Shown: piece after piece, positions 6,469-22,613 of the stretch
Numbering within the stretch: position 1 is the stretch's first letter
Layout of the letters: each line of letters opens with the position of its first letter
Assembly (NCBI GenBank): GCA_963607925.1
Contig: CAVDFY010000024.1
Span: 10,082 to 46,356, forward strand
Length of the DNA stretch: 36,275 bases
Origin: a bacterium
GTDB lineage: Bacteria > Bacillota_I > Bacilli_A > RF39 > UBA660
Reading direction: 5' to 3'
Translations under genes and position numbers: made by a program
The notes under the pieces: generated by a model
Database searches by the model: none
What the model was told of the DNA's origin: nothing
What the model saw: only the letters and a program-made list of their open reading frames with translations

Positions 6469-7152
6469 ATGTATATGTGGATTTATAGTGAAAGTGATTA
6501 CTTAGAAAAAAAAGATTCACTTGCTATATCAACATCTAGTTCAACACCAGTAAAAATAACATTAAAAGATAATAAAGTTGTAAACGTAGAATATCCAAAA
6601 GATGGTAATGAATATGCATCATCTATATATAAATTATTTCCAAGAACTATCGCAAAACAGGTATTAAATTTTGATAATGAAAAAAATATAAATAAACTTT
6701 ATAATGAGATGAGTACTAAGAAAAATAAATATTATAATTATTTAAATATGGATATGGGAAAACTTACTATAGATGATATAAGTTATGGGAATCATATATT
6801 TAATATCACTAAAAGAAAAGAATGTATAACATTAAGTTTAGATATATATATAAATAATAAATATAGATTAATTACTGCATATAAAGCATTTAAACCAAAT
6901 CAAATATGTACAATGGAACTAAGATACACTAAATCAGTAGAAGGAACATATAATTATAATATAATGGAAATAATAAAACATAGTAGTGATGCAAATTTAT
7001 TACAATTTAATAGTGATAACATGTCGGTATATGAAATACTTTCAGGAAAAGGTCAATACTTTATAACAGATGATGACAATAAACATTTAAAAGAGTTCTT
7101 AAAAAGTATAAATGTAGATTTAGCTCTTTGTGCAGAACCAGATTATAAGTGA
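6469..7152 (+). CDS. Hypothetical protein; the 5' end is uncertain because the frame is open from 6292
   Basis: ORF of 227 aa from the first ATG. The same frame has 59 further sense codons upstream without an in-frame ATG, while a good SD+ATG at 6311-6325 is in another frame (see findings). Confidence 0.55.
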   Translation: MYMWIYSESDYLEKKDSLAISTSSSTPVKITLKDNKVVNVEYPKDGNEYASSIYKLFPRTIAKQVLNFDNEKNINKLYNEMSTKKNKYYNYLNMDMGKLTIDDISYGNHIFNITKRKECITLSLDIYINNKYRLITAYKAFKPNQICTMELRYTKSVEGTYNYNIMEIIKHSSDANLLQFNSDNMSVYEILSGKGQYFITDDDNKHLKEFLKSINVDLALCAEPDYK

Positions 7153-7182
7153 CAGAAATATCACTTTTTAAATGCATAAAAA

Positions 7183-7200
7183 AAGAAACCGAGGTTTCTT
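7183..7200 (-). terminator. Intrinsic terminator downstream of the pilus ATPase gene
   Basis: Stem AAGAAAC/GTTTCTT with loop CGAG. On the minus strand it is followed by a T-run (the complement of aaaaaaa at 7177-7183). Confidence 0.6.
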
Positions 7201-8623
7201 ATAAATTGAAATATTCTATTTCTCCAGGTTTAACATTATCATGCGGTATCTCATTTTTATGATTATCAGGATCACTTGGAATCAATGCTTCATAATCTAT
7301 ATCAGGTTCATTAGACATAATTTCTAATTTGTCTTCATGATGTTCTGCATTAATTATATCAGGCTTATTATTTTCATTATGATTTTGACTATCATTTATA
7401 CTATTTTGTAAATTATCATCTTCATAATTAGATAAGTCATTATCAAGATCAACAGCTTTAAGTATTTCACTAAATGATGTTTCGCCAAGTAATACTTTTT
7501 CTAAACCATCTTGAAGTAGGGTAATAACATCACTTTTATATACAAGTTTTCTAAGTTCATGTTTAGGCATTGCATTTGTAATAGCATCTCTTATATCTTC
7601 ATTAATTAATAAAACTTCATAAAGACCAATACGTCCAGTATATCCTCTAAAACATTTATCACAACCATCTTTATTAGCATCGAACATTTGATTAACATCT
7701 TTATTCAATACTTTTTTAAATACACTTTTTTCATATGGAGTAGTATCTCTTAATTGTTTACAATGAGGACAAAGACGCCTCGCTAATTTTTGAGATATGA
7801 TTCCAGTAAGAGCTGAACCAAGCAAATAACGTTCTACATCCATATCAGTAAGTCTTTCAATTGTATTAAGTGAGTTATTTGTATGTATTGTTGATAATAC
7901 TTTGTGTCCAGTAATAGAAGCACGAACAGCAATTCTTGCAGTTTCATCGTCACGAATTTCTCCAATCATTATAATATCAGGGTCTTGACGTAAGATACTT
8001 CTTAAAACATTTGCGAATGTAAGACCAATCTCACTTTGAGATTGTACTTGGTTAATACCAACTATATCCATTTCGACTGGGTCTTCAACTGTAATTATAT
8101 TAACATCAGGAGTATTCATCTTTTGAAGAATAGAGTAAACTGTAGTAGATTTACCTGAACCAGTAGCACCAGTTACAAGTATAATACCATTTGGTACTTT
8201 AACCATCTTTTCTATTTTATCTAAACTATCTTCAGAAAATCCTAATGTATCAAGTCCTTGTAAACTCTTTGAATAGTCAAGGATACGAATAACCACTTTT
8301 TCGCCACAATTAGTAGGAAGAGAAGAAACACGAAGGTCTAACATCTTTTTACCAATTCTACTTTTAATCGCACCATCTTGTGGTAAACGAGTTTCCATAA
8401 TATTCATTCCAGCAATCATCTTAATACGAGAAATCATATTTCGTTTATATTTACCAGGTATAATAGAATAGTCTGACAAAATACCATCAATACGAATTCT
8501 AATTTTAACATTTTCTTTAGAAGGATCAAAGTGAATATCACTAACGTTCTTCTTAACAGCGTCCATAATGATTTCATTAACGATTTCAACTATGGGCATT
8601 TTTTCAAAGTCAAATTCCTTCAT
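7199..8623 (-). CDS. Type IV pilus / competence-pseudopilus assembly ATPase (GspE/PilB/ComGA family) with a long acidic C-terminal tail
   Basis: Walker A GATGSGKST, Asp box, Walker B (DPDIIMIGEIRD), His box (GHKVLSTIHTN), and the tetracysteine motif CPHC...CDKC typical of assembly ATPases. The conserved core starts at residue ~11 (no N1 domain). The last ~80 aa are D/E/N-rich and low complexity. Confidence 0.9.
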   Translation of the reverse strand: MKEFDFEKMPIVEIVNEIIMDAVKKNVSDIHFDPSKENVKIRIRIDGILSDYSIIPGKYKRNMISRIKMIAGMNIMETRLPQDGAIKSRIGKKMLDLRVSSLPTNCGEKVVIRILDYSKSLQGLDTLGFSEDSLDKIEKMVKVPNGIILVTGATGSGKSTTVYSILQKMNTPDVNIITVEDPVEMDIVGINQVQSQSEIGLTFANVLRSILRQDPDIIMIGEIRDDETARIAVRASITGHKVLSTIHTNNSLNTIERLTDMDVERYLLGSALTGIISQKLARRLCPHCKQLRDTTPYEKSVFKKVLNKDVNQMFDANKDGCDKCFRGYTGRIGLYEVLLINEDIRDAITNAMPKHELRKLVYKSDVITLLQDGLEKVLLGETSFSEILKAVDLDNDLSNYEDDNLQNSINDSQNHNENNKPDIINAEHHEDKLEIMSNEPDIDYEALIPSDPDNHKNEIPHDNVKPGEIEYFNL

Positions 8624-8650
8624 AACGTACCTCTTTCTATTCTAATATAT

Positions 8651-8679
8651 ATTATATATGAGAATTAATATTATTTCAA
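8651..8679 (-). promoter_or_regulatory. Consensus sigma-A promoter for the ATPase gene
   Basis: Minus strand: TTGAAA (8674-8679), a 17-nt spacer, then TATAAT (8651-8656). SD AAGAGG lies upstream of ATG 8623. Confidence 0.7.
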
Positions 8680-8687
8680 CAAAATTA

Positions 8688-8716
8688 TTGTTATTATTTT
8701 TAAAATTTGTTATACT
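8688..8716 (+). promoter_or_regulatory. Divergent promoter for the small pilin (and proS)
   Basis: TTGTTA (8688-8693), a 17-nt spacer, then TATACT (8711-8716), with TG at the extended -10 position. Confidence 0.55.
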
Positions 8717-8738
8717 TTCTTATAGTAGGAGTGCATGT

Positions 8739-9164
8739 ATGAAGAATAAAAATGGTTTTACAATGATTGAACTTTTAGCAGTATTAGGGATACTTGCATT
8801 ACTAGCAGTAGTAATAGTTCCAAATGTATCATCTTTAAGAAAAAAAACTTTAGAACAAACTTATGAAAATAGAGTAAATCAAGTTAAAATTGCTGCGAGA
8901 GAATGGGGAAGCGACAACCTAATAAGTGTTCCATCTTCAGTTTCAAAAGAATACACAGACCAAAGTACATGTGATAGTGATTGTGTTTGCGTAACAATAC
9001 AAGAATTAATAACAGAAGGATATCTAACTGGAGATAAAAATGAAAAAAAGACTTTAACAAATCCAATAACAAACAAAGAAATGAATAATTTATTAGTATG
9101 TATAAGATATGATACAAATAATATAGAAACAAGAGAGTTAGTTTCATACATTGCAGGTGAGTAA
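8739..9164 (+). CDS. Type IV pilin / ComGC-like pseudopilin (141 aa)
   Basis: MKNKNGFTMIELLAVLGILALLAVVIVPN prepilin motif. SD AGGAG lies 8 nt upstream of ATG 8739; the track start at 8658 adds a non-pilin leader and has no SD. The C-terminal part has a Cys cluster (CDSDCVCV) and the ELITEGYL motif common in Firmicutes pilins. Confidence 0.85.
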   Translation: MKNKNGFTMIELLAVLGILALLAVVIVPNVSSLRKKTLEQTYENRVNQVKIAAREWGSDNLISVPSSVSKEYTDQSTCDSDCVCVTIQELITEGYLTGDKNEKKTLTNPITNKEMNNLLVCIRYDTNNIETRELVSYIAGE

Positions 9165-9165
9165 C

Positions 9166-10866
9166 ATGAGAATGTCTAATAATTTTTTTATAACTCGTAA
9201 AGAATTTCCAAATGATGAAGATTGTATTTCAGCTAAATTATTAATTAAAAGTGGAATGATTTATAAAAATGATAATGGAATTTACTCATACTTACCAATA
9301 GGATTAAAAGTACTAGAAAATATTAAAAATATCATTAGAGAAGAAATGAAAAAAAATAATGCTGACGAAGTATTAATGCCATCTCTAGTTGATAGAAGTG
9401 TTTTTGAACTTACTAATAGAGAAAAAGTATTTGGAAAAGAAATATTTAATATATCAGGTAGAAATAATAAAGAGTATTCTCTTTGTCCAACACACGAAGA
9501 ATTATTTGCTCTACTAGTAAGAAATAAAATTAGAAGTTATAAAGATCTACATTTTACATTATTTCAATTAAGTAATAAGTTTAGAGATGAAGTTCATCCA
9601 GAGTATGGACTTATAAGAAAAAAAGAGTTTTATATGGCTGATGCTTATAGTTTTGATGCTGATGAAAGTGGTCTTGATATAAGCTATGATAAAATGTATC
9701 AAACTTTCAATAATATATTTAGAAGATTAAATATAGATACAATGGTTGTAAGAGCAGATCCTGACTCAATGAAAGGAACTTCTAGTGAAGAATTTCAAGT
9801 AATTTGTGATTATGGTGATAACGAAGTAGTAAAATGCAAAAAATGTAGTTATAGTACAAATATTGAAGACGCTTCATCATACGATTCATATACAAAAGAA
9901 GAACATCAATTAAAAAGTACACCAAATAAAAAAACAATAAAAAGCTTAACTGAGTTCTTACAAGTTCCAGCAAAGAACATTATAAAATCTCTTATAATAA
10001 AAGTAGACGAAACATATAAAATGATATTATTAAGAGCTGATGCTGAATTAAATGTTAATAAATTAAAAAAAGTATTAAAATGTGACAATATAGAAATACC
10101 AAGTGAGTATGAACTTGATAGAATGGGTACAAAAATAGGATATATTGGTCCTGTTAAAACAACAATGACAGTAATTGCAGATAATGAAGTTAAAAGCATG
10201 TATAATGCAATTTGCGGAAGCAATAAAGAAAATTATCATTATAAAAATGTAACCCCAGGTATAGACTTTAAAGTAAATAAATATGCAAATATTAAGTTGT
10301 TTAATGAAAATTCTAAGTGTCCTAGATGTAAAAGTGAATGCGAAATAATAAGAGGAATTGAAGTTGGACATATATTTAAACTTGAAACAAATTATAGTGA
10401 AACATATAATTTAAGATATTTAGATGAAGTAAATGAATTAAATTATGTACATATGGGTTCATATGGAATAGGTCTTGATAGATGCATCTCAGCAATAGTA
10501 GAAAAACATAATGATGAAAAAGGAATAATTTGGCCTATGGAAGTAGCTCCATATAAAGTAGGTATTGTCATAATAAATGTTAATGATAAAGAAACTTATA
10601 AATATGCAAGTAATCTTTATAAAAAATTAGAACAAATTGGTATAGATACAATTCTAGATGACAGAAAAGAAACAGTTGGTATTAAATTCAATGATATGGA
10701 CTTAATGGGTATACCTATTAGAATAACAATAGGAAGAAAACTAGAAGAAGGAATGGTAGAATTCAAATTAAGAGATGAAGAACAAAGCCATGACATAGAT
10801 AGAGATGTAATTATAAAAACAATATTAGATACCATTAATTCAAAAAGTAAAAAATTATATAATTAA
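9166..10866 (+). CDS. proS: Prolyl-tRNA synthetase, bacterial type with INS editing domain (copy 1)
   Basis: N-terminus MRMSNNFFITRKEFPNDEDCISAKLLIKSGMIYKNDNGIYSYLPIGLKVLENI. Motif 2 region FRDEVHPEYGLIRKKEFYMADAYSF. Motif 3 GSYGIGLDRCISAIVE. The central insertion is ~180 aa. ATG 9166 follows SD AGGTGAG, which lies inside the last pilin codons. Confidence 0.9.
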   Translation: MRMSNNFFITRKEFPNDEDCISAKLLIKSGMIYKNDNGIYSYLPIGLKVLENIKNIIREEMKKNNADEVLMPSLVDRSVFELTNREKVFGKEIFNISGRNNKEYSLCPTHEELFALLVRNKIRSYKDLHFTLFQLSNKFRDEVHPEYGLIRKKEFYMADAYSFDADESGLDISYDKMYQTFNNIFRRLNIDTMVVRADPDSMKGTSSEEFQVICDYGDNEVVKCKKCSYSTNIEDASSYDSYTKEEHQLKSTPNKKTIKSLTEFLQVPAKNIIKSLIIKVDETYKMILLRADAELNVNKLKKVLKCDNIEIPSEYELDRMGTKIGYIGPVKTTMTVIADNEVKSMYNAICGSNKENYHYKNVTPGIDFKVNKYANIKLFNENSKCPRCKSECEIIRGIEVGHIFKLETNYSETYNLRYLDEVNELNYVHMGSYGIGLDRCISAIVEKHNDEKGIIWPMEVAPYKVGIVIINVNDKETYKYASNLYKKLEQIGIDTILDDRKETVGIKFNDMDLMGIPIRITIGRKLEEGMVEFKLRDEEQSHDIDRDVIIKTILDTINSKSKKLYN

Positions 10867-10876
10867 TAAAAATAAC

Positions 10877-10918
10877 TTAAAAAAGAAAAAAATAAATCAA
10901 ATATTTTTTCTTTTTTAA
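10877..10918 (+). terminator. AT-rich hairpin / probable terminator after proS
   Basis: Perfect 15-bp inverted repeat TTAAAAAAGAAAAAA / TTTTTTCTTTTTTAA with a 12-nt loop. The 3' arm is itself a T-run, and the stem is thermodynamically weak (a single G:C pair). Confidence 0.45.
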
Positions 10919-10931
10919 TTATCTATTGTTA

Positions 10932-10960
10932 TTGAAAAAAAGTGATTAAAATGTTACTAT
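10932..10960 (+). promoter_or_regulatory. Promoter P2 of surface-protein unit 1
   Basis: TTGAAA, a 17-nt spacer, then TACTAT with an upstream TGT (extended -10). It is homologous to the promoter at 15677-15705. Confidence 0.6.
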
Positions 10961-10984
10961 TAATTAAAGAATAGGTGAATTAAC

Positions 10985-12991
10985 ATGAAAATAAAAAAAC
11001 AATTATTATTTTTGTTATTAATATTGATATTTCCATTAATACTAAATGCAGAAATGTCTGTAGATTATAGTAAAACTATAAAGCATGCAAATAATTACAT
11101 AAAGGATTTTCAATATAATAGACTATATATTGTAAGTGGAACAACAGATTTTTCAGTACCATTTGAATACAAAAACAACGCCCTAACAGTAAATAGTTCA
11201 TTTAAAGCAGGTGGCCTTTTAAATATACAAGAATTTGATATATCAAAGGGTGAAAGTAATAGTTCTTATCTATTCTCAGGAAGAGATTATTTTACTATGA
11301 CTGAATCTGGAAGTGACAGTGTCTATGTAATTGAAAAAGGAGCAAACACTAATTATACTCTTAAACCAAAAACAGAAAAAAGTGGTGTAAGAGTTACAGA
11401 ATATGTAAAAGAAAAAATAAGAGTAACAGGAACAGGTGAATATGTAAATCCTTGGGTATTTATTAAACCTGAATATAAAGTAAATATAACATTAGTAAAT
11501 GCTAATTCAAATGGAGCAACTTCAATAGTAGAAACTCTAGAAGTTGAAGATAAAGAATATCCAATAAGTGCTAATAAAAGTTACTTCAAATATAAAGGAG
11601 ATATGACTTGTAGCGGTTATTATGAAGAAGTAAGCGTTAACGGAAATAAACTTGTAATAAAAGGATTAACAAGCGATTTAAAATGTACAATTAAATATAC
11701 TCCAGATAACTTCAAAGTAACTGTTAATGCAACTAATGCAACAGTAGAAGGAAACGAAAAATCATTCCCAGCTGAAACTAATGGTACAGTAAAAGTAACA
11801 GGAACAGAAGGATATGCTCTAAGTAGCTTATCATGTACAAACTCACAATCTGGAAGCTATAAAGGTGGAAATTTAATTATAACTAACATAACCAATGATA
11901 CTGTTTGTACAATGACTTTCACTAATCCTGGAAAATCTTTCTCATATACAGGTTCAACAGCATCATATACAGTTCCATATACTGGATATTACAAATTAGA
12001 AGCATACGGAGCACAAGGAAATGGTTCAGGTGGAAAAGGTGGATATGCAAGTGAAATAATACTTATGACAAAGAACACTTCATTAACTATAAATGTAGGC
12101 GGACAAAACGGATATAATGGAGGAGGCTCTGGATATTATAATGGTGGAGGAGCTTCAACTATTAAAAAAAGTTCAACTATTATTTTAGCAGGTGCCGGTG
12201 GTGGAGGAGGTAACTCTGGAACTGCTGGTGGAAAAGGTTCAGGATCAGGTGGTGCATCATCAGGTGGAAGCGGAACAAATGGTGGACCGGGTAGTGCTGG
12301 AACAAATGGAGCCGGAGGAGGCTCAGGATATAATTATTCATATCAAACAAACTGTAGTAGTTGTTACTATGGTTCAAATACTTGCACAGGTGGATATGTA
12401 AGTACAAACTGTAGTAGTTGTTATTATGGAAGAAACACATGTAGTTATGGCTGTGATACAGAATGCGCTTGGTGCCAATATGATTGTACTGGCCCATATG
12501 GAAGTAGTTTTACAGTAAATGGATGGTGTCCTTGTACTAATAATGGTGGAAGTGGAAGCTGTAGTAATCTAGGATGCTTAAATAGAAGCGGATATGTAAG
12601 AACATCAACAACTTATAATGGACGAAGTAACTTAAGTTCAGGATGCAGCGCAACAAGTGCAACTAGTATTACCGTTATAGGAATTTGTTCATGGAATGGT
12701 GGCTGCTCATCTGGATACAGTTGTAGTAAATGCGGAACAAATAGAACAAACTGTAGTAGTTGCTATTATGGTTCAAATACATGCAGTTATGGTTGCGATA
12801 GTGTTTGGGATAGTTGTAAAACTGGATCAAATACATGTAGCTATGGTTGTGATACAAAAACAGTTGCATATAAATCAGGTTACGGTGGAACAAATAAATT
12901 TGATTCATCAGCAACAGAAAAACAAAATCTTGAAGGACAAAGAACTGGAAATGGACAAATAAAAATTAGTTTTTACAAAGAAAGTGAATAA
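10985..12991 (+). CDS. Secreted protein (668 aa): shared N-terminal module, two Ig-like/B-repeat-like segments, and a glycine-rich domain interrupted by a Cys-rich repeat region
   Basis: Sec signal peptide MKIKKQLLFLLLILIFPLILNA. Residues ~35-162 align at ~45% identity with the N-termini of the next two large proteins. FSYTGSTASYTVPYTGYYKLEAYGAQGNGSGGKGGYASE...VGGQNGYNGGGSG...AGAGGGGGNSG matches the bacterial glycine-rich-protein pattern. There are 26 Cys in ~210 aa, with the repeated motif NCSSCYYGxNTC(S)YGCD. Confidence 0.85.
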   Translation: MKIKKQLLFLLLILIFPLILNAEMSVDYSKTIKHANNYIKDFQYNRLYIVSGTTDFSVPFEYKNNALTVNSSFKAGGLLNIQEFDISKGESNSSYLFSGRDYFTMTESGSDSVYVIEKGANTNYTLKPKTEKSGVRVTEYVKEKIRVTGTGEYVNPWVFIKPEYKVNITLVNANSNGATSIVETLEVEDKEYPISANKSYFKYKGDMTCSGYYEEVSVNGNKLVIKGLTSDLKCTIKYTPDNFKVTVNATNATVEGNEKSFPAETNGTVKVTGTEGYALSSLSCTNSQSGSYKGGNLIITNITNDTVCTMTFTNPGKSFSYTGSTASYTVPYTGYYKLEAYGAQGNGSGGKGGYASEIILMTKNTSLTINVGGQNGYNGGGSGYYNGGGASTIKKSSTIILAGAGGGGGNSGTAGGKGSGSGGASSGGSGTNGGPGSAGTNGAGGGSGYNYSYQTNCSSCYYGSNTCTGGYVSTNCSSCYYGRNTCSYGCDTECAWCQYDCTGPYGSSFTVNGWCPCTNNGGSGSCSNLGCLNRSGYVRTSTTYNGRSNLSSGCSATSATSITVIGICSWNGGCSSGYSCSKCGTNRTNCSSCYYGSNTCSYGCDSVWDSCKTGSNTCSYGCDTKTVAYKSGYGGTNKFDSSATEKQNLEGQRTGNGQIKISFYKESE

Positions 12992-12995
12992 AAAT

Positions 12996-15635
12996 ATGAA
13001 GAATAAAAAGGAAAAATTATTACTATTATTATTGCTACTGCCATTCAGTATAAATGCTGTGGTAAGAAATAATTATGACATAACAAAAGAAAATACAAAT
13101 CTTTATATTAATGATTTTGATAGAAATGATGTATACATTATAAAAAGTACTTCTTCTCTTAATGTTCCGTTTATATATAACAACGGAACATTGAGCGTAG
13201 ATACATATTTCAAAAATGGTGGTTTATTAAATAGATATGAATTTTTAATATCTAAATCTTTAGAAAATGATACATATTTATTTAATGGAAATAATTATTG
13301 GACATTAACATCAAGTGGAGATAAAGTATATATGATTGATAATTCTGCCACAGATAATATATCTCTTCAAGAAAAAACAGTATTAAGTGGTGGAAGAGTA
13401 ACTGAATACATAAAAGAAGAAACTGGAGTAAGTGGAAGTGGAAAATATACAGACCCATGGGTATTTATTGAAAGATATAAAGTAACAGCAAAAAGTTCAA
13501 ATACATCATATGGAACAGTTACACCAAGTGAAAAGTATGTAAATAAAGGTGAAACACTAACATTTAATCTTTCACCAGCAAGTGAATATGAATATAGCAA
13601 CAATGATTGTGGAGCAACATATTCAAACGGGAAATTAATTCTATCAAATATTCAAGCAGATAAAAATTGTATAGTAAATTTCAAAAAGAAAGTTTACAAA
13701 TTAACTTTCAACAATAATGGTGGAAGCGAATGTACAAGCCAAACAGCAACAAGTGGTAATGAATGGGGAACACTTTGTACACCAAAAAGAACAAATTATA
13801 GTTTCTTAGGCTGGTTTACATCAGCGACTGGCGGAACAGAAGTAACTTCGAAAACAATAGCTACAAAAGACCAAACTGTGTATGCACATTGGGAATATAC
13901 AACATTAAAATTAACCTATGATAATAATGGTGGAAGTGGATGTACAAGCAAGAACTTTGTTAAAAATCAAAAAGTAGGAACTTTATGTGTTCCAACGAAA
14001 GCATCAAATGAGTTTGCAGGATGGTACACATCAGCAACAGGTGGAACAGAAGTAACAAGTGACACTGTATTAAGTGAAGCAACAACAGTATATGCACACT
14101 GGACACCAACATGCTTTGCGTTTACACCATCAACAGGAACAATAACAGATTATTATGATTATAAAGGAAACGATTCTTCAAACGGAAGTTGTTCAAGAAG
14201 CGTTACAATACCAAGTACAATAAGTGGTAAAACTGTATTGAAAATAGGCAATTACTCATTTGAAGAAAAAAATATAACATCAGTAACAATACCAAATACA
14301 GTAACTGAAATAGGGTATGGTGCTTTTGAAAGTAATAAATTAACAACAGTGACAATACCTTCTAGTGTAACTACAATAAAAAGCAGTGCATTTGGATACA
14401 ATAACATTACAACTCTTACATTAAATGAAGGATTAGTAACTATAGGAGACTCAGCATTTACAGAAAATGCAATTAAGGCATTGAAAACACCAAGTACAAT
14501 GGTATCAATAGGATATAGTGCATTCTACAAGAATAAAATTACAAGTCTTACATTAAACGAAGGATTAACTTCAATTGAAGGATATGCCTTTTATAATAAT
14601 AGCATTCCAAGTGTAAAAGCGCCTAGCACTCTAGTATCAATAGGGTACTCAGCATTTGAAGAAAATAATATATCTTCATTAACTTTAAATAGTGGCTTAA
14701 AAACTATAAATGATTTTGCATTTTTTAAAAACAAAATACCAAGTGTTACAATACCTACATCTGTAACATATTTAGGAAATGCATCATTTAATGATAATAA
14801 ACTTCCGGATAGTACAGCAACTCTTTATAAAAGAAACAGTGATGGAAGTGAAGATAAAACAACAGTAGTTAGTTATGGTGGTTCTAAAAGATCAGGAGTT
14901 GTTGTGCCATCAACTGTAAAAACAATAGATAATTATGCATATTATTATAATAATATAACTAGTATAACAATACCAACAAGTGTTACAAAAGTTGGTAATC
15001 ATGGAGTGGCATTTAATAATTTAAGTACAATAAACATTCCAAGTTCAGTTACATATATAGACTATAGAGGATTTGCAAATAACTGGGCTAGCACAATAAA
15101 TTATACATCAAGTAACTTAACATATTTAGGAAATGCAGCATTTAATGGTAATTCAACAAGCACAACAAATGCATTAAAATATAAGAAAAATGCAGATGGA
15201 ACAGATGACACATCAGTAGTAGTCAGCTATTCAGCAAATAGAACAAATGTTACATTACCAAGTACTGTAAAAGAAATAGCAGATAGTGCATTCTTTAATG
15301 CATTTATATATAGTATTACGATTCCTGAGGGAGTAACATATATAGGTTCAGGAGCATTTAGATGGTGCTACTTATCTAATGTAACAATTCCAAGTACAGT
15401 AACTGAAATAGGATATGATGCATTTGAAAAATATTATGACAGTAGTTGGAGTGAAAATTTAAACCCACTTACTAAAATAATAAATAAAACAGGTAAATCA
15501 TTTAAATGGCATACAATAATAAATGGTGAATATTACTATGATTCTAGTTTAAGTGATGATTACTACTATAAAGATTATGAATTTGAAACAGGTACGGTTA
15601 AAAATCCTAGAGGAAACATAACTGTAACAAAATAA
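12996..15635 (+). CDS. Secreted protein (paralog A): shared N-terminal module, InlB-type B-repeats (Listeria-Bacteroides repeat) and BspA-type leucine-rich repeats
   Basis: Signal peptide MKNKKEKLLLLLLLLPFSINA (the alternative GTG start at 12984 overlaps the upstream stop). Two copies of Y(K/T)LT(F/Y)xNNGGS(E/G)CTS...GW(F/Y)TSATGGTEVTS...VYAHW. There are about 20 repeats of the type IPxSVTxIGxxAFxxNxIT. I see no LPXTG, SLH, choline-binding or C-terminal TM anchor. Confidence 0.88.
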   Translation: MKNKKEKLLLLLLLLPFSINAVVRNNYDITKENTNLYINDFDRNDVYIIKSTSSLNVPFIYNNGTLSVDTYFKNGGLLNRYEFLISKSLENDTYLFNGNNYWTLTSSGDKVYMIDNSATDNISLQEKTVLSGGRVTEYIKEETGVSGSGKYTDPWVFIERYKVTAKSSNTSYGTVTPSEKYVNKGETLTFNLSPASEYEYSNNDCGATYSNGKLILSNIQADKNCIVNFKKKVYKLTFNNNGGSECTSQTATSGNEWGTLCTPKRTNYSFLGWFTSATGGTEVTSKTIATKDQTVYAHWEYTTLKLTYDNNGGSGCTSKNFVKNQKVGTLCVPTKASNEFAGWYTSATGGTEVTSDTVLSEATTVYAHWTPTCFAFTPSTGTITDYYDYKGNDSSNGSCSRSVTIPSTISGKTVLKIGNYSFEEKNITSVTIPNTVTEIGYGAFESNKLTTVTIPSSVTTIKSSAFGYNNITTLTLNEGLVTIGDSAFTENAIKALKTPSTMVSIGYSAFYKNKITSLTLNEGLTSIEGYAFYNNSIPSVKAPSTLVSIGYSAFEENNISSLTLNSGLKTINDFAFFKNKIPSVTIPTSVTYLGNASFNDNKLPDSTATLYKRNSDGSEDKTTVVSYGGSKRSGVVVPSTVKTIDNYAYYYNNITSITIPTSVTKVGNHGVAFNNLSTINIPSSVTYIDYRGFANNWASTINYTSSNLTYLGNAAFNGNSTSTTNALKYKKNADGTDDTSVVVSYSANRTNVTLPSTVKEIADSAFFNAFIYSITIPEGVTYIGSGAFRWCYLSNVTIPSTVTEIGYDAFEKYYDSSWSENLNPLTKIINKTGKSFKWHTIINGEYYYDSSLSDDYYYKDYEFETGTVKNPRGNITVTK
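13173..14284 (+). repeat. Copy 1 of a 1112-bp perfect direct repeat
   Basis: A line-by-line comparison with 16295-17406 (offset 3122) found no mismatch. The first mismatches are at 13172/16294 and 14285/17407. Confidence 0.9.
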
Positions 15636-15664
15636 GAAATCAGTATTGATTTCTTATTTTTATT
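15634..15664 (+). terminator. Intrinsic terminator of unit 1
   Basis: AAGAAATCA gtat TGATTTCTT followed by ATTTTTATT. Confidence 0.8.
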
Positions 15665-15676
15665 AATAAAACAATA

Positions 15677-15705
15677 TTGAAAAATAATAATTAAAATGTT
15701 ACTAT
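15677..15705 (+). promoter_or_regulatory. Promoter P3 of surface-protein unit 2 (duplicate of P2)
   Basis: TTGAAA, a 17-nt spacer, then TACTAT. The block ATTAAAATGTTACTATTAA is identical to that in P2. Confidence 0.6.
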
Positions 15706-15727
15706 TAAATAGATAATAGGAGGATAT

Positions 15728-16102
15728 ATGAAAAAAGGATTAACTGTTTTTTTAATTTTATTTTTATTAGTAGGATGTAATAAGGAAACAACAAAGACAA
15801 ATGAAAAACCAGAAGAAACAAAATATTTAACTAAGATGGAAATGAATGAAAAATTATTTGGCTATGCAACTGAGATTTATAATGCTAAAACATATACAAA
15901 AGTTGAAAAGACTGATGGAGAATACTTTATATCATTAAAAAACCTAAAAGAAAAATATAACTATGATATATCAATGTTTTTAAATCCAACTACTTACGAT
16001 AAATGTGATCAAGAGAAGACTGGTGTATCATTTGATATAGATAATGTTAGAAATTTAGAATATAAAGATGCTCCTATATTAATAATGATATACTGCGATT
16101 AG
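15728..16102 (+). CDS. Small lipoprotein (124 aa), first cistron of unit 2
   Basis: Lipobox LLVGC (MKKGLTVFLILFLLVGCNKE). Strong SD AGGAGG. It lies 12 nt upstream of paralog B. Confidence 0.8.
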   Translation: MKKGLTVFLILFLLVGCNKETTKTNEKPEETKYLTKMEMNEKLFGYATEIYNAKTYTKVEKTDGEYFISLKNLKEKYNYDISMFLNPTTYDKCDQEKTGVSFDIDNVRNLEYKDAPILIMIYCD

Positions 16103-16114
16103 GAGAAAAATATT

Positions 16115-18886
16115 ATGAAGAAAAATAAATTGTTGATAACATTAATAACCATATTATTTTTACCATTTAGTATAAATGCTGTGGTAAGAAATAATTATGA
16201 TATAACAAAAGAAAACACAAATCTTTATATTAATGATTTTAGTAGAAATAATATATATATTATTAAAAGTACTTCTTCATTTAACGTACCATTCATATAT
16301 AACAACGGAACATTGAGCGTAGATACATATTTCAAAAATGGTGGTTTATTAAATAGATATGAATTTTTAATATCTAAATCTTTAGAAAATGATACATATT
16401 TATTTAATGGAAATAATTATTGGACATTAACATCAAGTGGAGATAAAGTATATATGATTGATAATTCTGCCACAGATAATATATCTCTTCAAGAAAAAAC
16501 AGTATTAAGTGGTGGAAGAGTAACTGAATACATAAAAGAAGAAACTGGAGTAAGTGGAAGTGGAAAATATACAGACCCATGGGTATTTATTGAAAGATAT
16601 AAAGTAACAGCAAAAAGTTCAAATACATCATATGGAACAGTTACACCAAGTGAAAAGTATGTAAATAAAGGTGAAACACTAACATTTAATCTTTCACCAG
16701 CAAGTGAATATGAATATAGCAACAATGATTGTGGAGCAACATATTCAAACGGGAAATTAATTCTATCAAATATTCAAGCAGATAAAAATTGTATAGTAAA
16801 TTTCAAAAAGAAAGTTTACAAATTAACTTTCAACAATAATGGTGGAAGCGAATGTACAAGCCAAACAGCAACAAGTGGTAATGAATGGGGAACACTTTGT
16901 ACACCAAAAAGAACAAATTATAGTTTCTTAGGCTGGTTTACATCAGCGACTGGCGGAACAGAAGTAACTTCGAAAACAATAGCTACAAAAGACCAAACTG
17001 TGTATGCACATTGGGAATATACAACATTAAAATTAACCTATGATAATAATGGTGGAAGTGGATGTACAAGCAAGAACTTTGTTAAAAATCAAAAAGTAGG
17101 AACTTTATGTGTTCCAACGAAAGCATCAAATGAGTTTGCAGGATGGTACACATCAGCAACAGGTGGAACAGAAGTAACAAGTGACACTGTATTAAGTGAA
17201 GCAACAACAGTATATGCACACTGGACACCAACATGCTTTGCGTTTACACCATCAACAGGAACAATAACAGATTATTATGATTATAAAGGAAACGATTCTT
17301 CAAACGGAAGTTGTTCAAGAAGCGTTACAATACCAAGTACAATAAGTGGTAAAACTGTATTGAAAATAGGCAATTACTCATTTGAAGAAAAAAATATAAC
17401 ATCAGTGACAATACCAAATACAGTAACTGAAATAGGATATAATGCATTTTATAAAAATAGTATAACATCATTAATTATTCCATCAAGTGTTAAGCAAATT
17501 AATATTTCAGCATTCTATCAAAATAATATATCTACATTAACATTAAATGAAGGCTTAACATATATTGGAAGCAGTGCATTTTATCAAAATAAACTAACAA
17601 CGCTTAAAACACCAAGTACATTAACTGAAATAGGAGATTCAGCATTTTCAGAAAATAGTATAGCAACATTAACATTAAATGAAGGCTTAACATATATTGG
17701 AGGCAGTGCTTTTTACAAAAATAAGTTAACAACACTAAAGACACCAAGCACATTAACTAAGATATATTATTCAGCATTTGAAAAAAATAATATAGCAACA
17801 TTAACATTAAATGAAGGCTTAACATATATTGGAGGCAGTGCTTTCTCTTATAATAAGTTAACAACAGTAAAAACTCCTTCAACGTTAACAGAATTAGGTT
17901 CATACGCTTTCTCTAACAATCAAATAACTTCACTAACTTTAAATGATAAATTAACCACAATAGGAGACTTTGCATTTTACTACAACAAAATTCCAACAGT
18001 TACAATACCAAAATCAGTTACAAGTTTAGGAAATGCATCATTCAATAACAATCAGCTTCCAGACAGCATAGCTACATTCTATAAAAGAAATAGCGACGGA
18101 AGTGAAGATAAAACAACTGTTGTAAGTTATGGAGGTTCAAATAGAACTGACGTTATTGTGCCAAGCACAACTAAAACAATAAATCCTTATGCATATTATA
18201 GTAATTATATAAGTAAAATTACTCTTCCAGAAGGATTAACTAAAATTGATTCAGATGGTATAGCATTTAATAGTTTAAGCGAGATAACATTACCATCAAC
18301 TGTTAATTATCTTGGAGGATGGGCATTATATGCAAATGATATTAGAAATATAGATTATAATAATACTGTAATAACATATATTGGAACAGCTGCAATGAAT
18401 GCAAATAATTTAGATGATTCTCAAGCATTTGTATATGCTAAAAATTCTGATGGAACAGATGATAAAACAAAATTAATAAGTTATGGTGGAGCAAAAACGA
18501 CTGGTGTTGTAGTACCAAATAGTGTTAAAGAAATAGGTGTTTATGCATTCTTTTCAGACTGGATAAGGTCTATAGTATTCCCAGAAGGACTAGAAACAAT
18601 TGGCTATTCAGCATTTCGCGCATGCAGTTTAAGTGGAAGTATAACAATTCCATCAACTGTAACATCCATTGACAGTAGTGCATTTATAAAAACAACAAGA
18701 GATAGTTACTACAATACTGGATTAACAGAAATAGTAAATAAAACTGGCAAATCATTTAAATGGCATACAATAATTAATAATGATTATTACTATTACAAAG
18801 ATTACCCAACAGTATACCAAAAAACATTTGAATTTGAGACTGGTACTGTAGTAAATCCAGTAGGAGACGTCACTATTTCAAAATAA
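16115..18886 (+). CDS. Secreted protein (paralog B): shared N-terminal module, InlB-type B-repeats and an expanded BspA-type LRR region
   Basis: Signal peptide MKKNKLLITLITILFLPFSINA. Residues ~60-430 are identical to paralog A. The LRR half is diverged and contains three tandem 44-aa units. The C-terminal block NKTGKSFKWHTIIN...FE(F)ETGTV is shared with A. Confidence 0.88.
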   Translation: MKKNKLLITLITILFLPFSINAVVRNNYDITKENTNLYINDFSRNNIYIIKSTSSFNVPFIYNNGTLSVDTYFKNGGLLNRYEFLISKSLENDTYLFNGNNYWTLTSSGDKVYMIDNSATDNISLQEKTVLSGGRVTEYIKEETGVSGSGKYTDPWVFIERYKVTAKSSNTSYGTVTPSEKYVNKGETLTFNLSPASEYEYSNNDCGATYSNGKLILSNIQADKNCIVNFKKKVYKLTFNNNGGSECTSQTATSGNEWGTLCTPKRTNYSFLGWFTSATGGTEVTSKTIATKDQTVYAHWEYTTLKLTYDNNGGSGCTSKNFVKNQKVGTLCVPTKASNEFAGWYTSATGGTEVTSDTVLSEATTVYAHWTPTCFAFTPSTGTITDYYDYKGNDSSNGSCSRSVTIPSTISGKTVLKIGNYSFEEKNITSVTIPNTVTEIGYNAFYKNSITSLIIPSSVKQINISAFYQNNISTLTLNEGLTYIGSSAFYQNKLTTLKTPSTLTEIGDSAFSENSIATLTLNEGLTYIGGSAFYKNKLTTLKTPSTLTKIYYSAFEKNNIATLTLNEGLTYIGGSAFSYNKLTTVKTPSTLTELGSYAFSNNQITSLTLNDKLTTIGDFAFYYNKIPTVTIPKSVTSLGNASFNNNQLPDSIATFYKRNSDGSEDKTTVVSYGGSNRTDVIVPSTTKTINPYAYYSNYISKITLPEGLTKIDSDGIAFNSLSEITLPSTVNYLGGWALYANDIRNIDYNNTVITYIGTAAMNANNLDDSQAFVYAKNSDGTDDKTKLISYGGAKTTGVVVPNSVKEIGVYAFFSDWIRSIVFPEGLETIGYSAFRACSLSGSITIPSTVTSIDSSAFIKTTRDSYYNTGLTEIVNKTGKSFKWHTIINNDYYYYKDYPTVYQKTFEFETGTVVNPVGDVTISK
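16295..17406 (+). repeat. Copy 2 of the 1112-bp perfect direct repeat
   Basis: See 13173-14284. Confidence 0.9.
17534..17929 (+). repeat. Three tandem in-frame 132-bp units (two LRRs each)
   Basis: Units start at 17534, 17666 and 17798 with ACATTAACATTAAATGAAGGCTTAACATATATTGGA. The 36-nt unit starts are identical and the remainder of each unit is diverged. Confidence 0.85.
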
Positions 18887-18993: not shown

Positions 18994-20229
18994 ATGAAAC
19001 CAATAAATGTAACAAGTGAGATAAATCCACTAAAAAAAGTATTAGTTCATAGACCTGGTAGAGAATTATTGAATCTTACACCGGATAGTCTTGGTAGATT
19101 ACTATTTGATGATATTCCATACTTACCAGTTGCCCAAGAAGAACATGATGAATTCGTAAGAATCTTAAAAGATAATGGAGTAGAAGTAGTATATTTAGAA
19201 GATTTGATGACTGAAGTACTAGATTTAGATCCTGAAATTAGAGAAAGATTTATTACTCAATTTATCTATGAAGCAGGTATTCGTACTCCAAAATATAGAG
19301 GACTTGTATATGAATACTTATCATCAATAGAGAATAATAGACTTCTAGTTTTAAAAACTATGGAAGGAATTATTAATAATGAAGTAATTAAAGCTAAAGC
19401 TAAAAAAGGTAAAAGTTTAGTAGACTCAATCAAAGAAGATACTCAATTTGTAGTGGATCCTATGCCAAACTTATACTTTACTCGTGACCCATTTGCATCA
19501 ATCGGAAATGGTGTATCACTAAATAGAATGTACTCAGTTACTCGTAATAGAGAAACAATATATGCTGAATATATATTTGAGTATCATCCAGATTATAAAG
19601 GACAAGTAGATAAGTATTTTGATAGATACAGTGCTTATCATATTGAAGGTGGAGATGTTCTTAATTTAAATGAACATATCTTAGCAATAGGAATTAGTCA
19701 AAGAACATGTGCTGATGCTATAGAAGAATTAGCATATAAAGTATTTGCTGATAAAGATGCTAAAATTGATACTATCTTAGCATTTACTATTCCAGAATGT
19801 CGTGCCTTCATGCATTTAGACACTGTATTTACTCAAATAGATGTAGATAAATTTACTTATCATCCAGGAATTATGGGAACACTTAAAGTATTTGAAATAA
19901 CTAGTGATGGTGAAGGAGGACTTAATGTTAAAGAAAGAAATGCTTCACTTGAAAAGATATTAGAAGATTATCTTCATAGAAAAATAACTTTAATACCATG
20001 TGCTGGTGGAGATAAGATTGGCGCTGAACGTGAGCAATGGAATGATGGAAGCAATACATTGTGTATAGCTCCAGGAGTAGTTATTGTTTATGATAGAAAT
20101 AATATCACTAATGAATTATTAAGAGACAATGGAATTAAAGTTCTTGAAATGCATAGTGCAGAGTTATCTAGAGGTAGAGGTGGTCCAAGATGTATGTCAA
20201 TGCCTTTAGTAAGAGCTGACAAGCCTTGA
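18994..20229 (+). CDS. arcA: Arginine deiminase
   Basis: MKPINVTSEINPLKKVLVHRPGRELLNLTP N-terminus, FTRDPF, HLDTVFT, and the catalytic Cys in GGPRCMSMPL. Confidence 0.93.
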   Translation: MKPINVTSEINPLKKVLVHRPGRELLNLTPDSLGRLLFDDIPYLPVAQEEHDEFVRILKDNGVEVVYLEDLMTEVLDLDPEIRERFITQFIYEAGIRTPKYRGLVYEYLSSIENNRLLVLKTMEGIINNEVIKAKAKKGKSLVDSIKEDTQFVVDPMPNLYFTRDPFASIGNGVSLNRMYSVTRNRETIYAEYIFEYHPDYKGQVDKYFDRYSAYHIEGGDVLNLNEHILAIGISQRTCADAIEELAYKVFADKDAKIDTILAFTIPECRAFMHLDTVFTQIDVDKFTYHPGIMGTLKVFEITSDGEGGLNVKERNASLEKILEDYLHRKITLIPCAGGDKIGAEREQWNDGSNTLCIAPGVVIVYDRNNITNELLRDNGIKVLEMHSAELSRGRGGPRCMSMPLVRADKP

Positions 20230-22613
20230 AAAAAAATAGAAGTATTGTTGTAGCTTTAGGTGGAAATGCTCTTGGGAATAATCCTGAAGAGCAACTAAAG
20301 CTAGTTAAGAACACTGCTAAATCAATCGTAGATTTAGTTAGTGAAGGATATAATGTAGTTGTAAGCCACGGAAATGGACCTCAAGTGGGAATGATTAACC
20401 TAGCATTTGAGGAATCTAAAGACACACCAAATATGCCATTCGCAGAATGTGGTGCGATGAGTCAAGGATACATAGGTTATCACTTACAACAAGCAATTCA
20501 AACTGAATTGAAAGCAAGGGATATCAATAAAGGATGTGCATCAGTAGTTACACAAGTACTTGTTGATAAAAAAGACCCAGCTTTTAATAAACCAGATAAA
20601 CCTGTTGGTTCGTTTTATACCAAAAAAGAAGCAGATAAAATTGCTTCTGAAAGAGGTTATACGTTCACAGAAGATGCTGGAAGAGGCTATAGGAGAGTTG
20701 TACCTTCTCCTAAACCTATAGAAATAGTAGAACTTGATTTAATTAAAGACCTTTTAGATCAAGGAAATATTGTTATAGTATCAGGAGGAGGAGGAATACC
20801 AGTTGTTAAGGAAGGTGGTTCTTTAAAAGGAGTAGCAGCTGTTATTGATAAAGATAGATCTAGCTCACTTTTAGCAAGAAAACTAGATGCAGATATCTTA
20901 TTAATACTTACTACTGTAGAAAAAGTTTCACTTAAATATAACACAGTCGACCAAATTAATATTCATAATTTAGAAGTATCTGAAGCAAAAAAATACATCA
21001 AATCTGGTGAGTTCGCTAAAGGAAGTATGCTTCCAAAAGTAGAATCATGTATAGATTTTTGTGAATACAAAGAAGGTGGCGTTGGTATTATCACATCACT
21101 TGATTGTGCCAAAGAGGCTATCAATGAAGAAACAGGTACAATAATTAGAAATATGAAAAAGGGAGGCAAAAAAATGGCTAAAACAAGAAAAAAAGAAAGA
21201 ATGTCAGCCTTTACAATTATCTTCCTACTTATTATTGCTCTTGCATTAATTACTTTAATTCTTCCAAATGCTGCATTTGATGAAGCAGGAACAATAATTA
21301 ATGGTAGTGGAGTAGTTAAAGCAAAAATATCAGATGTTTTACTATCACCAATACTAGGTTTTGGAAGTGCTGTAGACGTATGTGTATTCGTTCTTATACT
21401 TGGAGGATTCTTACAAGTAGTAACTAAATCAGGGGCTCTAGAAAATGGAATTAAGGTCTTAGTTAAAAAATTAAAAGGAAATGAATTAGTATTAATTCCA
21501 ATACTAATGATAATATTCTCAATAGGTGGAACAACCTATGGAATGTTAGAAGAAACAGTTGGTTTCTATGCATTACTTGCATTTACAATGGTAGCTGCAG
21601 GTATGGATACAATCGTTGCATCAGCAACTGTATTATTAGGTGCTGGTAGTGGTGTTTTAGGTTCAACTATTAACCCATTTGCAACAGGAGCAGCTGTAGC
21701 AGCTTTACCAGAGGGAATGACTGTTAATCAAGGCGTTATTATAGCTTTAGGTACAGTACTTTGGTTAGTATCTTTAGGAATTTCAATGTTCTTTGTAATG
21801 AGATATGCTAAAAAAGTAAAAGCTGACAAAGGTTCGACTTTCTTATCATTACAAGAGCAAAAGAAGATGGAAAAATTCAAAGAAAAAGATGAATCAAAAG
21901 AAGTTACTCTTACTGGAAGACAAAAGGTTACCTTATGGATTTTCGGTATAACATTCTTAATTATGATTATTGGATTTATTCCATGGGAAGAATTTGGTAT
22001 TACATTCTTTAAGTCATGGACTGGCTGGTTAACAGGAACACCTCTTGGTGAGTGGTACTTTAATGAATCAGCAGCATGGTTCTTCATAATGGCAATTATT
22101 ATTGGTATTATTAATGGATTCAGTGCTAATCAAATTATAGATGAATTTATTGCAGGTGCAAGAGATATTTTATCAGTTGTACTTATCGTTGCAGTAGCAC
22201 GTGGTGTTTACTCATTAATGAGTCAAACATATTTAGATAACTACATTATTTATAATGTTGCAGATATGTTAAAAGGAACTCCAGTTGCATTATTTACTCC
22301 TTGTAACTATCTATTACATATAGTACTTTCAGTACTTGTACCATCTAGTTCAGGACTTGCAACTATTTCAACACCAATTATGGCTCCACTTGCAGCACAA
22401 CTTGGTTATAGTGTAGAAACAACAATTATGACTTTCGTTGCAGCAAATGGACTTGTAAACTTAATTACTCCAACATGTGGAGCAATTATGGGTGGTTTAG
22501 CTCTTGCTAAAGTTAATTACACAACTTGGGTTAAATGGGCTACTAAAGTTATAGTAACTATCGGTTTAGCTTCAATGGTAATCTTAACATTCGCATCAGT
22601 TATACTTTCTTAA
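20226..22613 (+). CDS. arcC: Carbamate kinase fused in frame to a YfcC/ArcD-type (DcuC-like) membrane transporter
   Basis: The TTG start overlaps the arcA stop (TTGA). Residues 1-308 are carbamate kinase (IVVALGGNAL, SHGNGPQVG, VSGGGGIP, GSMLPKV). There is no stop codon after the kinase domain. SD AAGGGAGG and ATG 21174 precede MAKTRKKERMSAFTIIFLLII... and ~11 predicted TM segments typical of the putative arginine/ornithine antiporter family. Confidence 0.85.
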   Translation: MKKNRSIVVALGGNALGNNPEEQLKLVKNTAKSIVDLVSEGYNVVVSHGNGPQVGMINLAFEESKDTPNMPFAECGAMSQGYIGYHLQQAIQTELKARDINKGCASVVTQVLVDKKDPAFNKPDKPVGSFYTKKEADKIASERGYTFTEDAGRGYRRVVPSPKPIEIVELDLIKDLLDQGNIVIVSGGGGIPVVKEGGSLKGVAAVIDKDRSSSLLARKLDADILLILTTVEKVSLKYNTVDQINIHNLEVSEAKKYIKSGEFAKGSMLPKVESCIDFCEYKEGGVGIITSLDCAKEAINEETGTIIRNMKKGGKKMAKTRKKERMSAFTIIFLLIIALALITLILPNAAFDEAGTIINGSGVVKAKISDVLLSPILGFGSAVDVCVFVLILGGFLQVVTKSGALENGIKVLVKKLKGNELVLIPILMIIFSIGGTTYGMLEETVGFYALLAFTMVAAGMDTIVASATVLLGAGSGVLGSTINPFATGAAVAALPEGMTVNQGVIIALGTVLWLVSLGISMFFVMRYAKKVKADKGSTFLSLQEQKKMEKFKEKDESKEVTLTGRQKVTLWIFGITFLIMIIGFIPWEEFGITFFKSWTGWLTGTPLGEWYFNESAAWFFIMAIIIGIINGFSANQIIDEFIAGARDILSVVLIVAVARGVYSLMSQTYLDNYIIYNVADMLKGTPVALFTPCNYLLHIVLSVLVPSSSGLATISTPIMAPLAAQLGYSVETTIMTFVAANGLVNLITPTCGAIMGGLALAKVNYTTWVKWATKVIVTIGLASMVILTFASVILS

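Follow-up and report, generated by a model that had tools for sequence, protein, structure and literature searches.

We analysed a 36,275-nt stretch of bacterial DNA (contig CAVDFY010000024.1, positions 10,082 to 46,356; hereafter the window), in which two tandem paralogous genes for putative surface proteins, here called A and B, share a long exact repeat. Each gene consists of a head and a tail of leucine-rich repeats (LRRs), and we identified signatures indicating that the two heads very probably evolve in concert, through recurrent gene conversion in both directions acting upon an old duplication. An earlier note, made from the sequence of the window alone, had proposed a recent homogenisation of the heads by gene conversion. 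Comparison with related genomes bears this proposal out, as the paralogs are identical within two or more genomes and about 7% apart between them, and the flanks of the identical tract follow orthology.

An ungapped comparison at an offset of 3122 nt identified an uninterrupted run of 1112 nt with 0 mismatches (13173-14284 and 16295-17406), and self-BLAST agreed, confirming the perfect repeat that the earlier note had described. The repeat is in frame within both genes, and takes in nearly the whole of the non-LRR head and half of the first LRR. The domain content given in the earlier note stands as regards the Listeria-Bacteroides repeats (B-repeats), the two LRR paralogs and the lipoprotein gene between them, but not as regards the N-terminal module (N-module), of which the tract (codons 60-430 of A) covers most and not only the end.

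Both edges of the tract are sharp. On the 5’ side, exactly 15 mismatches were counted in the 132 adjoining nucleotides (13041-13172; at 13046, 13079, 13094, 13119, 13120, 13128, 13131, 13136, 13142, 13157, 13158, 13163, 13166, 13169 and 13172), where about 15 had been noted before. Most of this region, 13047-13172, holds identical runs of 32 and 24 nt, which could act as recombination anchors, and still further 5’, in the signal-peptide codons and the intergenic DNA, A/B identity is only about 25-60%. On the 3’ side, identity from 14315 onwards is 52-76% per 50 nt, which is the level of the LRR family and agrees with the collapse of similarity within about 40 nt described earlier. When the 494 mismatches across 2631 aligned A/B columns were permuted 10,000 times, the longest identical run never exceeded 69 nt (mean 32), against the 1112 nt observed, and a chance origin of the run is thus excluded.

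We gathered syntenic loci by protein search and contig look-ups; the closest genomes are gut-derived metagenome-assembled genomes (MAGs) labelled ‘Mollicutes bacterium’ or ‘Bacilli bacterium’. In a 516-kb ENA scaffold (L001), the gene order X-A-lipoprotein-B, where X is a third paralog, is collinear with that of the window; its orthologue of gene A lies at 6879-9518, and the two loci share about 92% DNA identity overall. The same order was identified in HGM10772 (L009 and L008) and JABLTL01 (L019 and L014), with contigs broken inside the heads. Among the other loci, one contig begins within the A tail (L005), two contain X, a remnant of A, the lipoprotein gene and B (L004 and L013), several have one gene only between proS and arcA (L002/L003, L006, L007 and L015), and two have a different kind of gene at the B position (L011 and L016).

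L001 contains an exact repeat of its own, of 1058 nt (6939-7996 and 10064-11121, equivalent to 13056-14113 of the window). Inside each of the two genomes the A and B copies of the tract are 100% identical, whereas about 7% of sites (7.1%) differ between the L001 tract and that of the window, and the longest exact match of the window tract to any other genome spans only 71-103 nt. We applied a quartet site-pattern test to the A and B genes of the window and of L001, with segments in gene-A coordinates. Inside the tract (13173-14113), 67 sites group the paralogs and 0 group the orthologues, so that paralogs are closer to each other here than orthologues are. Outside it the genes follow orthology: 0 sites group paralogs and 63 group orthologues in the 5’ flank (12896-13055), the corresponding numbers for the tails (14601-15695) are 5 and 206, and orthologues are grouped at 269 sites and paralogs at 5 in both flanks combined. 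The A tail and the lipoprotein gene are 92-94% identical between genomes. The transfer is non-reciprocal, with gene number and order kept, as the window and L001 are collinear and the lipoprotein gene and the tails are orthologous.

Synonymous sites have been homogenised as well. Within the window, synonymous divergence (dS) between A and B is 0 over 370 codons of the tract, but 0.83 in the tails and 0.76 in the first 59 codons; between genomes, dS is 0.22 for the tract, 0.25 for proS and 0.32 for the A tail. Because dS in the tails is about 0.8, and because A and B each have orthologues in other genomes, we conclude from these comparisons that the duplication predates the split of the genomes. 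The absence of differences in 1112 nt sets a 95% upper bound of 3/1112, or 0.27%, on divergence inside the window tract, and relative to the 7.1% between lineages this would date the last event to approximately the final 4% of the time since the lineages diverged, given a uniform substitution rate in the tract. A similarly recent last event would hold for L001, independently.

The same data bear on the idea that identity is held by strong purifying selection, either on the protein or on an embedded DNA or RNA element. Between genomes, purifying selection does act on the head, with a ratio of nonsynonymous to synonymous divergence (dN/dS) of 0.18. However, the synonymous sites that are identical within a genome diverge at the background rate between genomes (dS 0.22 versus 0.25 for proS), so that protein-level selection cannot account for the identity, and Rfam finds no RNA family in the tract; we consider this explanation extremely improbable. 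We rejected an RNA element in the tract, as the sole Rfam match of the window is one tRNA, located elsewhere. A mobile-element origin was likewise rejected, since the tract matched neither phage nor plasmid DNA, keeps the reading frame of both genes and has the head of the single-copy gene of L002, L006 and L007 as its orthologue.

The earlier note had looked to a comparison across strains for breakpoints, and this comparison identified, in at least two other genomes, tract edges that do not coincide with those of the window (Table 1). The 5’ zone of the window (13047-13172) falls inside the identical tract of L001. At the 3’ end, gene B of the window has A-type alleles at 14114, 14177, 14240 and 14255, positions at which all five B orthologues and the single-copy outgroup share the other state, indicating A-to-B transfer (14114-14284) in the window lineage. 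At the 5’ end, gene A of the window alone has the outgroup state at 13119, 13120, 13128 and 13131, and all other copies, those of gene A in the L001 lineage among them, have the B state, indicating B-to-A transfer there in the L001 lineage. Tract ends sit where A/B identity drops to about 55-75%, and these positions would fit a strand exchange limited by homology.

A single event would be enough for the window taken alone, namely a partial duplication, or the horizontal replacement of one head, that took place very recently and in this genome only, a one-off with no continuing concerted evolution. We regard this as very unlikely, since L001 and HGM10772 show like tracts with other boundaries and other sequence, both directions of transfer are on record, and the 88%-identical 5’ zone of the window looks like an older tract. 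In addition, if such events were rare, a recently converted state in every two-gene genome would be improbable.

The repeat had also been expected to be hazardous for assembly, and three independent short-read assemblies indeed break there (HGM10772, JABLTL01 and Logan contig L010). In HGM10772, assembled with MEGAHIT at a k-mer length (k) of 119, two contigs both end at 13310, exactly 119 nt past the last A/B mismatch at 13191, and the A-tail contig begins exactly 119 nt before 14114; these breaks at exactly k = 119 imply the identical tract given for this genome in Table 1. The JABLTL01 contigs likewise break k bases inside the repeat. The 2.2-kb Logan contig is 100% identical to 10921-13076 of the window and ends at the first 32-nt run common to A and B. 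Breaks k bases into the repeat mean that the reads of independent samples hold common sequence at both positions.

Could truly different heads have been given one collapsed consensus? The 1.1-kb repeat is longer than any short-read k-mer, related assemblies break at it, and metagenome assemblers pop bubbles, by which a few real single-nucleotide polymorphisms (SNPs) could vanish. Collapse nonetheless needs copies that are already nearly identical, and copies differing by about 10%, in the adjacent 126 nt, were resolved both in the window and in L001, as were mismatches 41 nt apart in HGM10772. Furthermore, two independent assemblies have different tract edges and different sequence, and the k = 119 breaks of HGM10772 place common sequence at both positions in the reads themselves. 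An artefact of this kind seems improbable, and would at most turn ‘100%’ into ‘about 99% or more’, leaving the step profile and the grouping of paralogs in place. From the contig ends and the compared assemblies, we therefore take the repeat to be real and the step profile and paralog grouping to be robust, with the exact figure of 100% subject to the bubble-popping of a few SNPs.

The earlier note had further predicted that deletion or duplication of 3.1 kb between the repeats would create a chimera of A head and B tail, as a plausible means of variation. This was not borne out: the deletion chimera was sought in every related locus, and neither it nor a three-copy array turned up. The rearrangements that we identified are of other kinds. 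In L004 (9243-9523), and also in L013 (between 8236 and 8608), the remnant of gene A has its first ~100 nt joined to its last ~165 nt, with the ATG changed to ATA; this loss of A is an internal 2.4-kb deletion joining about 13100 to about 15465, in which the 1.1-kb repeat was unused. Gene B of L001 (around 11304) is without ~540 nt that match 17418-17959 of the window, in the region of a 132-nt tandem LRR array, indicating that LRR number varies between genomes. In L011, which represents another strain, the gene at 247-1893 (P0015), between the lipoprotein gene and arcA, is a mosaic, of which the first ~470 nt are B-type (93% identical) and the remainder is an unrelated, Flg_new-rich, non-LRR tail, with the breakpoint at the end of the N-module. 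Finally, an insertion sequence (IS) element with an rve integrase lies at different places in the proS-arcA locus of L002 (12352-13586) and L004 (5831-6649). L002 additionally has a serine recombinase upstream.

Homogeneous heads could in principle also arise through cycles of unequal crossing-over, in which deletion to a chimera is followed by re-duplication, as unequal exchange can act on direct repeats spaced 3.1 kb from each other and the locus is structurally plastic. Such a cycle, however, would also leave a tail and the lipoprotein gene homogenised or replaced. Between genomes, orthology holds for the A tail, the lipoprotein gene and the B tail alike, orthologues being grouped at 206 of the 211 informative tail sites, and neither a chimera nor a three-copy array occurs in any related locus with these genes. 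We accordingly rate crossing-over cycles as quite unlikely.

A bolder proposal is that the conserved head is a ‘handle’ for swapping whole C-terminal tails between paralogs and strains at proS-arcA, making a recombinase-free cassette system that would generate adhesin diversity at appreciable frequency in populations. The mosaic gene of L011, the change in LRR copy number, the gene-A remnant, the IS insertions and the neighbouring pseudopilin and T2SSE genes are hints in this direction, and we hold the proposal to be possible but doubtful.

For the two-way gene conversion that we favour, the proposed course is that homologous recombination, presumably dependent on RecA, would recurrently copy ~0.9-1.1 kb of one head onto the other, non-reciprocally and with gene order unchanged. 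Heads that are identical within a genome, ~7% apart between genomes and delimited by differing end points show that homogenisation has been independent and recent in each lineage. Tracts would halt where identity is too low for strand exchange, at the signal-peptide region and at the LRR start, and the process would be self-sustaining in the head and shut out of the tails. The outcome would be two proteins with one common head and differing LRR tails, the latter presumably ligand-binding.

Four points weigh against this interpretation. Sparse A/B SNPs may have collapsed if short reads underlie the assemblies of the window and L001, and ‘identical’ may then mean ~99% or more. The event is read from sequence, and the window encodes neither recA nor other recombination machinery. 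Both heads are on one contig in two genomes only, and the fourth genome, JABLTL01 (L014 and L019), is joined from two contigs that possibly come from different strains.

The interval between proS (9151-10866) and arcA (18994-20229) holds four genes on the same strand, X, A, the lipoprotein gene and B (Table 1). A and B share the order signal peptide, N-module, beta-sandwich, two Listeria-Bacteroides repeats, Cys-containing linker and BspA-type LRRs. Matches to PF13306 (LRR_5; 242.5 bits for A and 333.1 for B, cut-off 27.7), PF09479 (~85 bits, 2 copies in each protein) and TIGR02543 (42 bits, cut-off 20.95) place both proteins, at domain level only, in the BspA-type LRR and Listeria-Bacteroides repeat families. 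The nearest solved structures are LRR ‘cell surface proteins’ of gut bacteria (4gt6 and 4h09). The two proteins fell short of the NCBIfam cut-offs for class 1 internalins (42-55 bits against 1600 and 22 bits against 1050, for InlA and InlH/InlC2), and for HupY/LrrG (equivalog NF047961; 164-199 bits against 1250), with a likeness to the latter at LRR-domain level only; no LPXTG is visible in either translation. The N-module, of ~140 aa, has no family match. An AlphaFold2 model of residues 1-240 of B, from an alignment of 22 sequences, is confident in the beta-sandwich alone (aa 160-235), with pLDDT <50 for the N-module (aa 20-155).

Table 1. Genes, repeats and identical tracts at the proS-arcA locus (window coordinates; tracts of other genomes in gene-A coordinates).
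Feature	Position	Strand	Description
Gene X	10985..12991	+	668 aa; third paralog, only the N-module in common; Gly/Cys-rich tail
Gene A	12996..15635	+	879 aa from the ATG used by relatives (the ORF list offers GTG 12984); secreted; two Flg_new repeats, BspA-type LRRs
Small lipoprotein gene between A and B	15728..16102	+	124 aa, lipobox LLVGC
Gene B	16115..18886	+	923 aa; head as in A, LRR tail longer and divergent
Tract copy in gene A	13173..14284	+	codons 60-430: N-module, beta-sandwich, 2 Flg_new repeats, linker, first half LRR
Tract copy in gene B	16295..17406	+	codons 61-431
5’ zone in A, apparently of older or partial homogenisation	13047..13172	+	88% identical to 16169-16294
3’ edge of tract	14285..14314	+	mismatch at 14285, then 29 identical nt
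132-nt tandem LRR array in B tail	17506..17874	+	2.8 copies, 85% matches
Promoter-like intergenic repeat 5’ of X	10905..10980	+	75% identical to 15650-15725
Second promoter-like repeat, 5’ of lipoprotein gene	15650..15725	+	76 nt, 75% identity
Identical tract, window	13173-14284		direct
Identical tract, L001	13056-14113		direct
Identical tract, HGM10772	13192-14113		inferred from contig breaks
Identical tract, JABLTL01	about 13268-14113		weaker; two contigs possibly of different strains

X shares 37-39% amino acid identity with the N-modules of A and B, and takes no part in the conversion. Its C-terminal half (12344-12854) is Gly-rich and then Cys-rich, with repeated ‘NCSSCYYG.NTC’ units and a GC content of 0.38, against ~0.27 elsewhere in the window. 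Neither X nor the lipoprotein has a Pfam or NCBIfam match. In the lipoprotein, a signal peptide ending in a lipobox (pattern [LVI][ASTVI][GAS]C) was read from the N-terminal sequence, MKKGLTVFLILFLLVGC, and its gene is 94-95% conserved in L001, L004, L005, L008, L013 and L014. Exact-protein look-ups returned no match for A, B or the lipoprotein, X alone being on record (in a Logan contig). Both intergenic repeats carry a promoter-like TTGAAA-17-TACTAT site with a TG extension, and from this pairing of promoter-like repeats, one 5’ of X and one 5’ of the lipoprotein gene, X-A and lipoprotein-B would seem to be paralogous transcription units.

The flanking DNA is ordinary chromosome of ~27% GC, and the window also encodes LexA, a penicillin-binding protein (PBP), pseudopilin and T2SSE genes, IF3, L20 and a second prolyl-tRNA synthetase (ProRS). 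The presence of LexA is consistent with an organism proficient in RecA/SOS functions, and the adjoining pseudopilin and T2SSE genes may be interpreted as competence genes. The two ProRS genes (9151-10866 and 27124-28545), 16 kb apart, are of different types, one being bacterial and carrying an editing domain, the other having a ProRS-C_1 C-terminus. Directly 3’ of the arginine deiminase gene, a single ORF of 795 aa (20226-22613) fuses a carbamate-kinase-type AA_kinase to a DcuC-type membrane carrier, and this fusion is kept in all related loci. Ribosomal protein L20 (29679-30212) is extended at its C-terminus by a SAP/HeH-like segment (aa 142-177).

Concerted evolution by gene conversion has been described for duplicated bacterial genes, such as tufA/tufB and the rRNA operons (survey PMC6053082). 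The A/B pair resembles these in having paralogs closer than orthologues, in a non-reciprocal transfer that preserves gene order, and in a homogenisation that reaches synonymous sites. It differs in that homogenisation is partial, with a sharp step at each edge, in that A and B are fast-evolving surface proteins and not core machinery, and in that their concert is seen only among close genomes (about 92% DNA identity). In the Listeria internalin clusters (inlGHE and inlG-C2-D-E), inlH is a recombinant of the 5’ end of inlC2 with the 3’ portion of inlD (PMC3977354). These clusters are likewise tandem, paralogous LRR and B-repeat surface-protein genes of a Firmicute that undergo homologous recombination between similar parts. 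The Listeria outcome, however, is a deletion chimera, of which none was found at the A/B locus, and the A/B proteins have BspA-type LRRs (PF13306), B-repeats that precede the LRRs, the reverse of the internalin order, and no LPXTG.

In Helicobacter pylori, babA and babB (and sabA and sabB), which are adhesin paralogs that are both full-length and expressed, trade segments through RecA-type conversion, and mosaics with sharp breakpoints result. A and B share with them the exchange of segments between full-length paralogs and the sharp breakpoints; in contrast, the bab loci are dispersed and their chimeras change the binding phenotype, whereas A and B are in tandem and it appears to be the non-LRR head that is homogenised. 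Antigenic variation of the cassette type (Neisseria pilE/pilS, Borrelia vlsE and Mycoplasma genitalium mgpB/MgPar) uses silent, truncated donors in a one-way transfer that diversifies an expression site. There too, surface-protein genes are changed by non-reciprocal recombination from nearby homologous sequence, but A and B are each a complete ORF with a signal peptide, DNA passes in both directions between them, and the outcome is homogenisation. Because both partners are complete genes and transfer goes both ways, the pair is not a system of this type. Our literature search identified no previous account of this locus, nor any of gene conversion affecting BspA-type LRR genes of bacteria. The A/B pair is a new instance of an already well-known mechanism, and no new mechanism is involved.

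The locus provides a clean, quantified case of continuing two-way conversion limited to one half of two tandem surface-protein genes. As the repeat breaks short-read MAG assemblies at this place, public MAGs systematically contain these putative adhesin genes in fragmented or wrongly joined form. The proS-arcA interval is a hypervariable surface-protein island in these bacteria, and the A/B case bears on surface variation in an uncultured, genome-reduced lineage of the gut.

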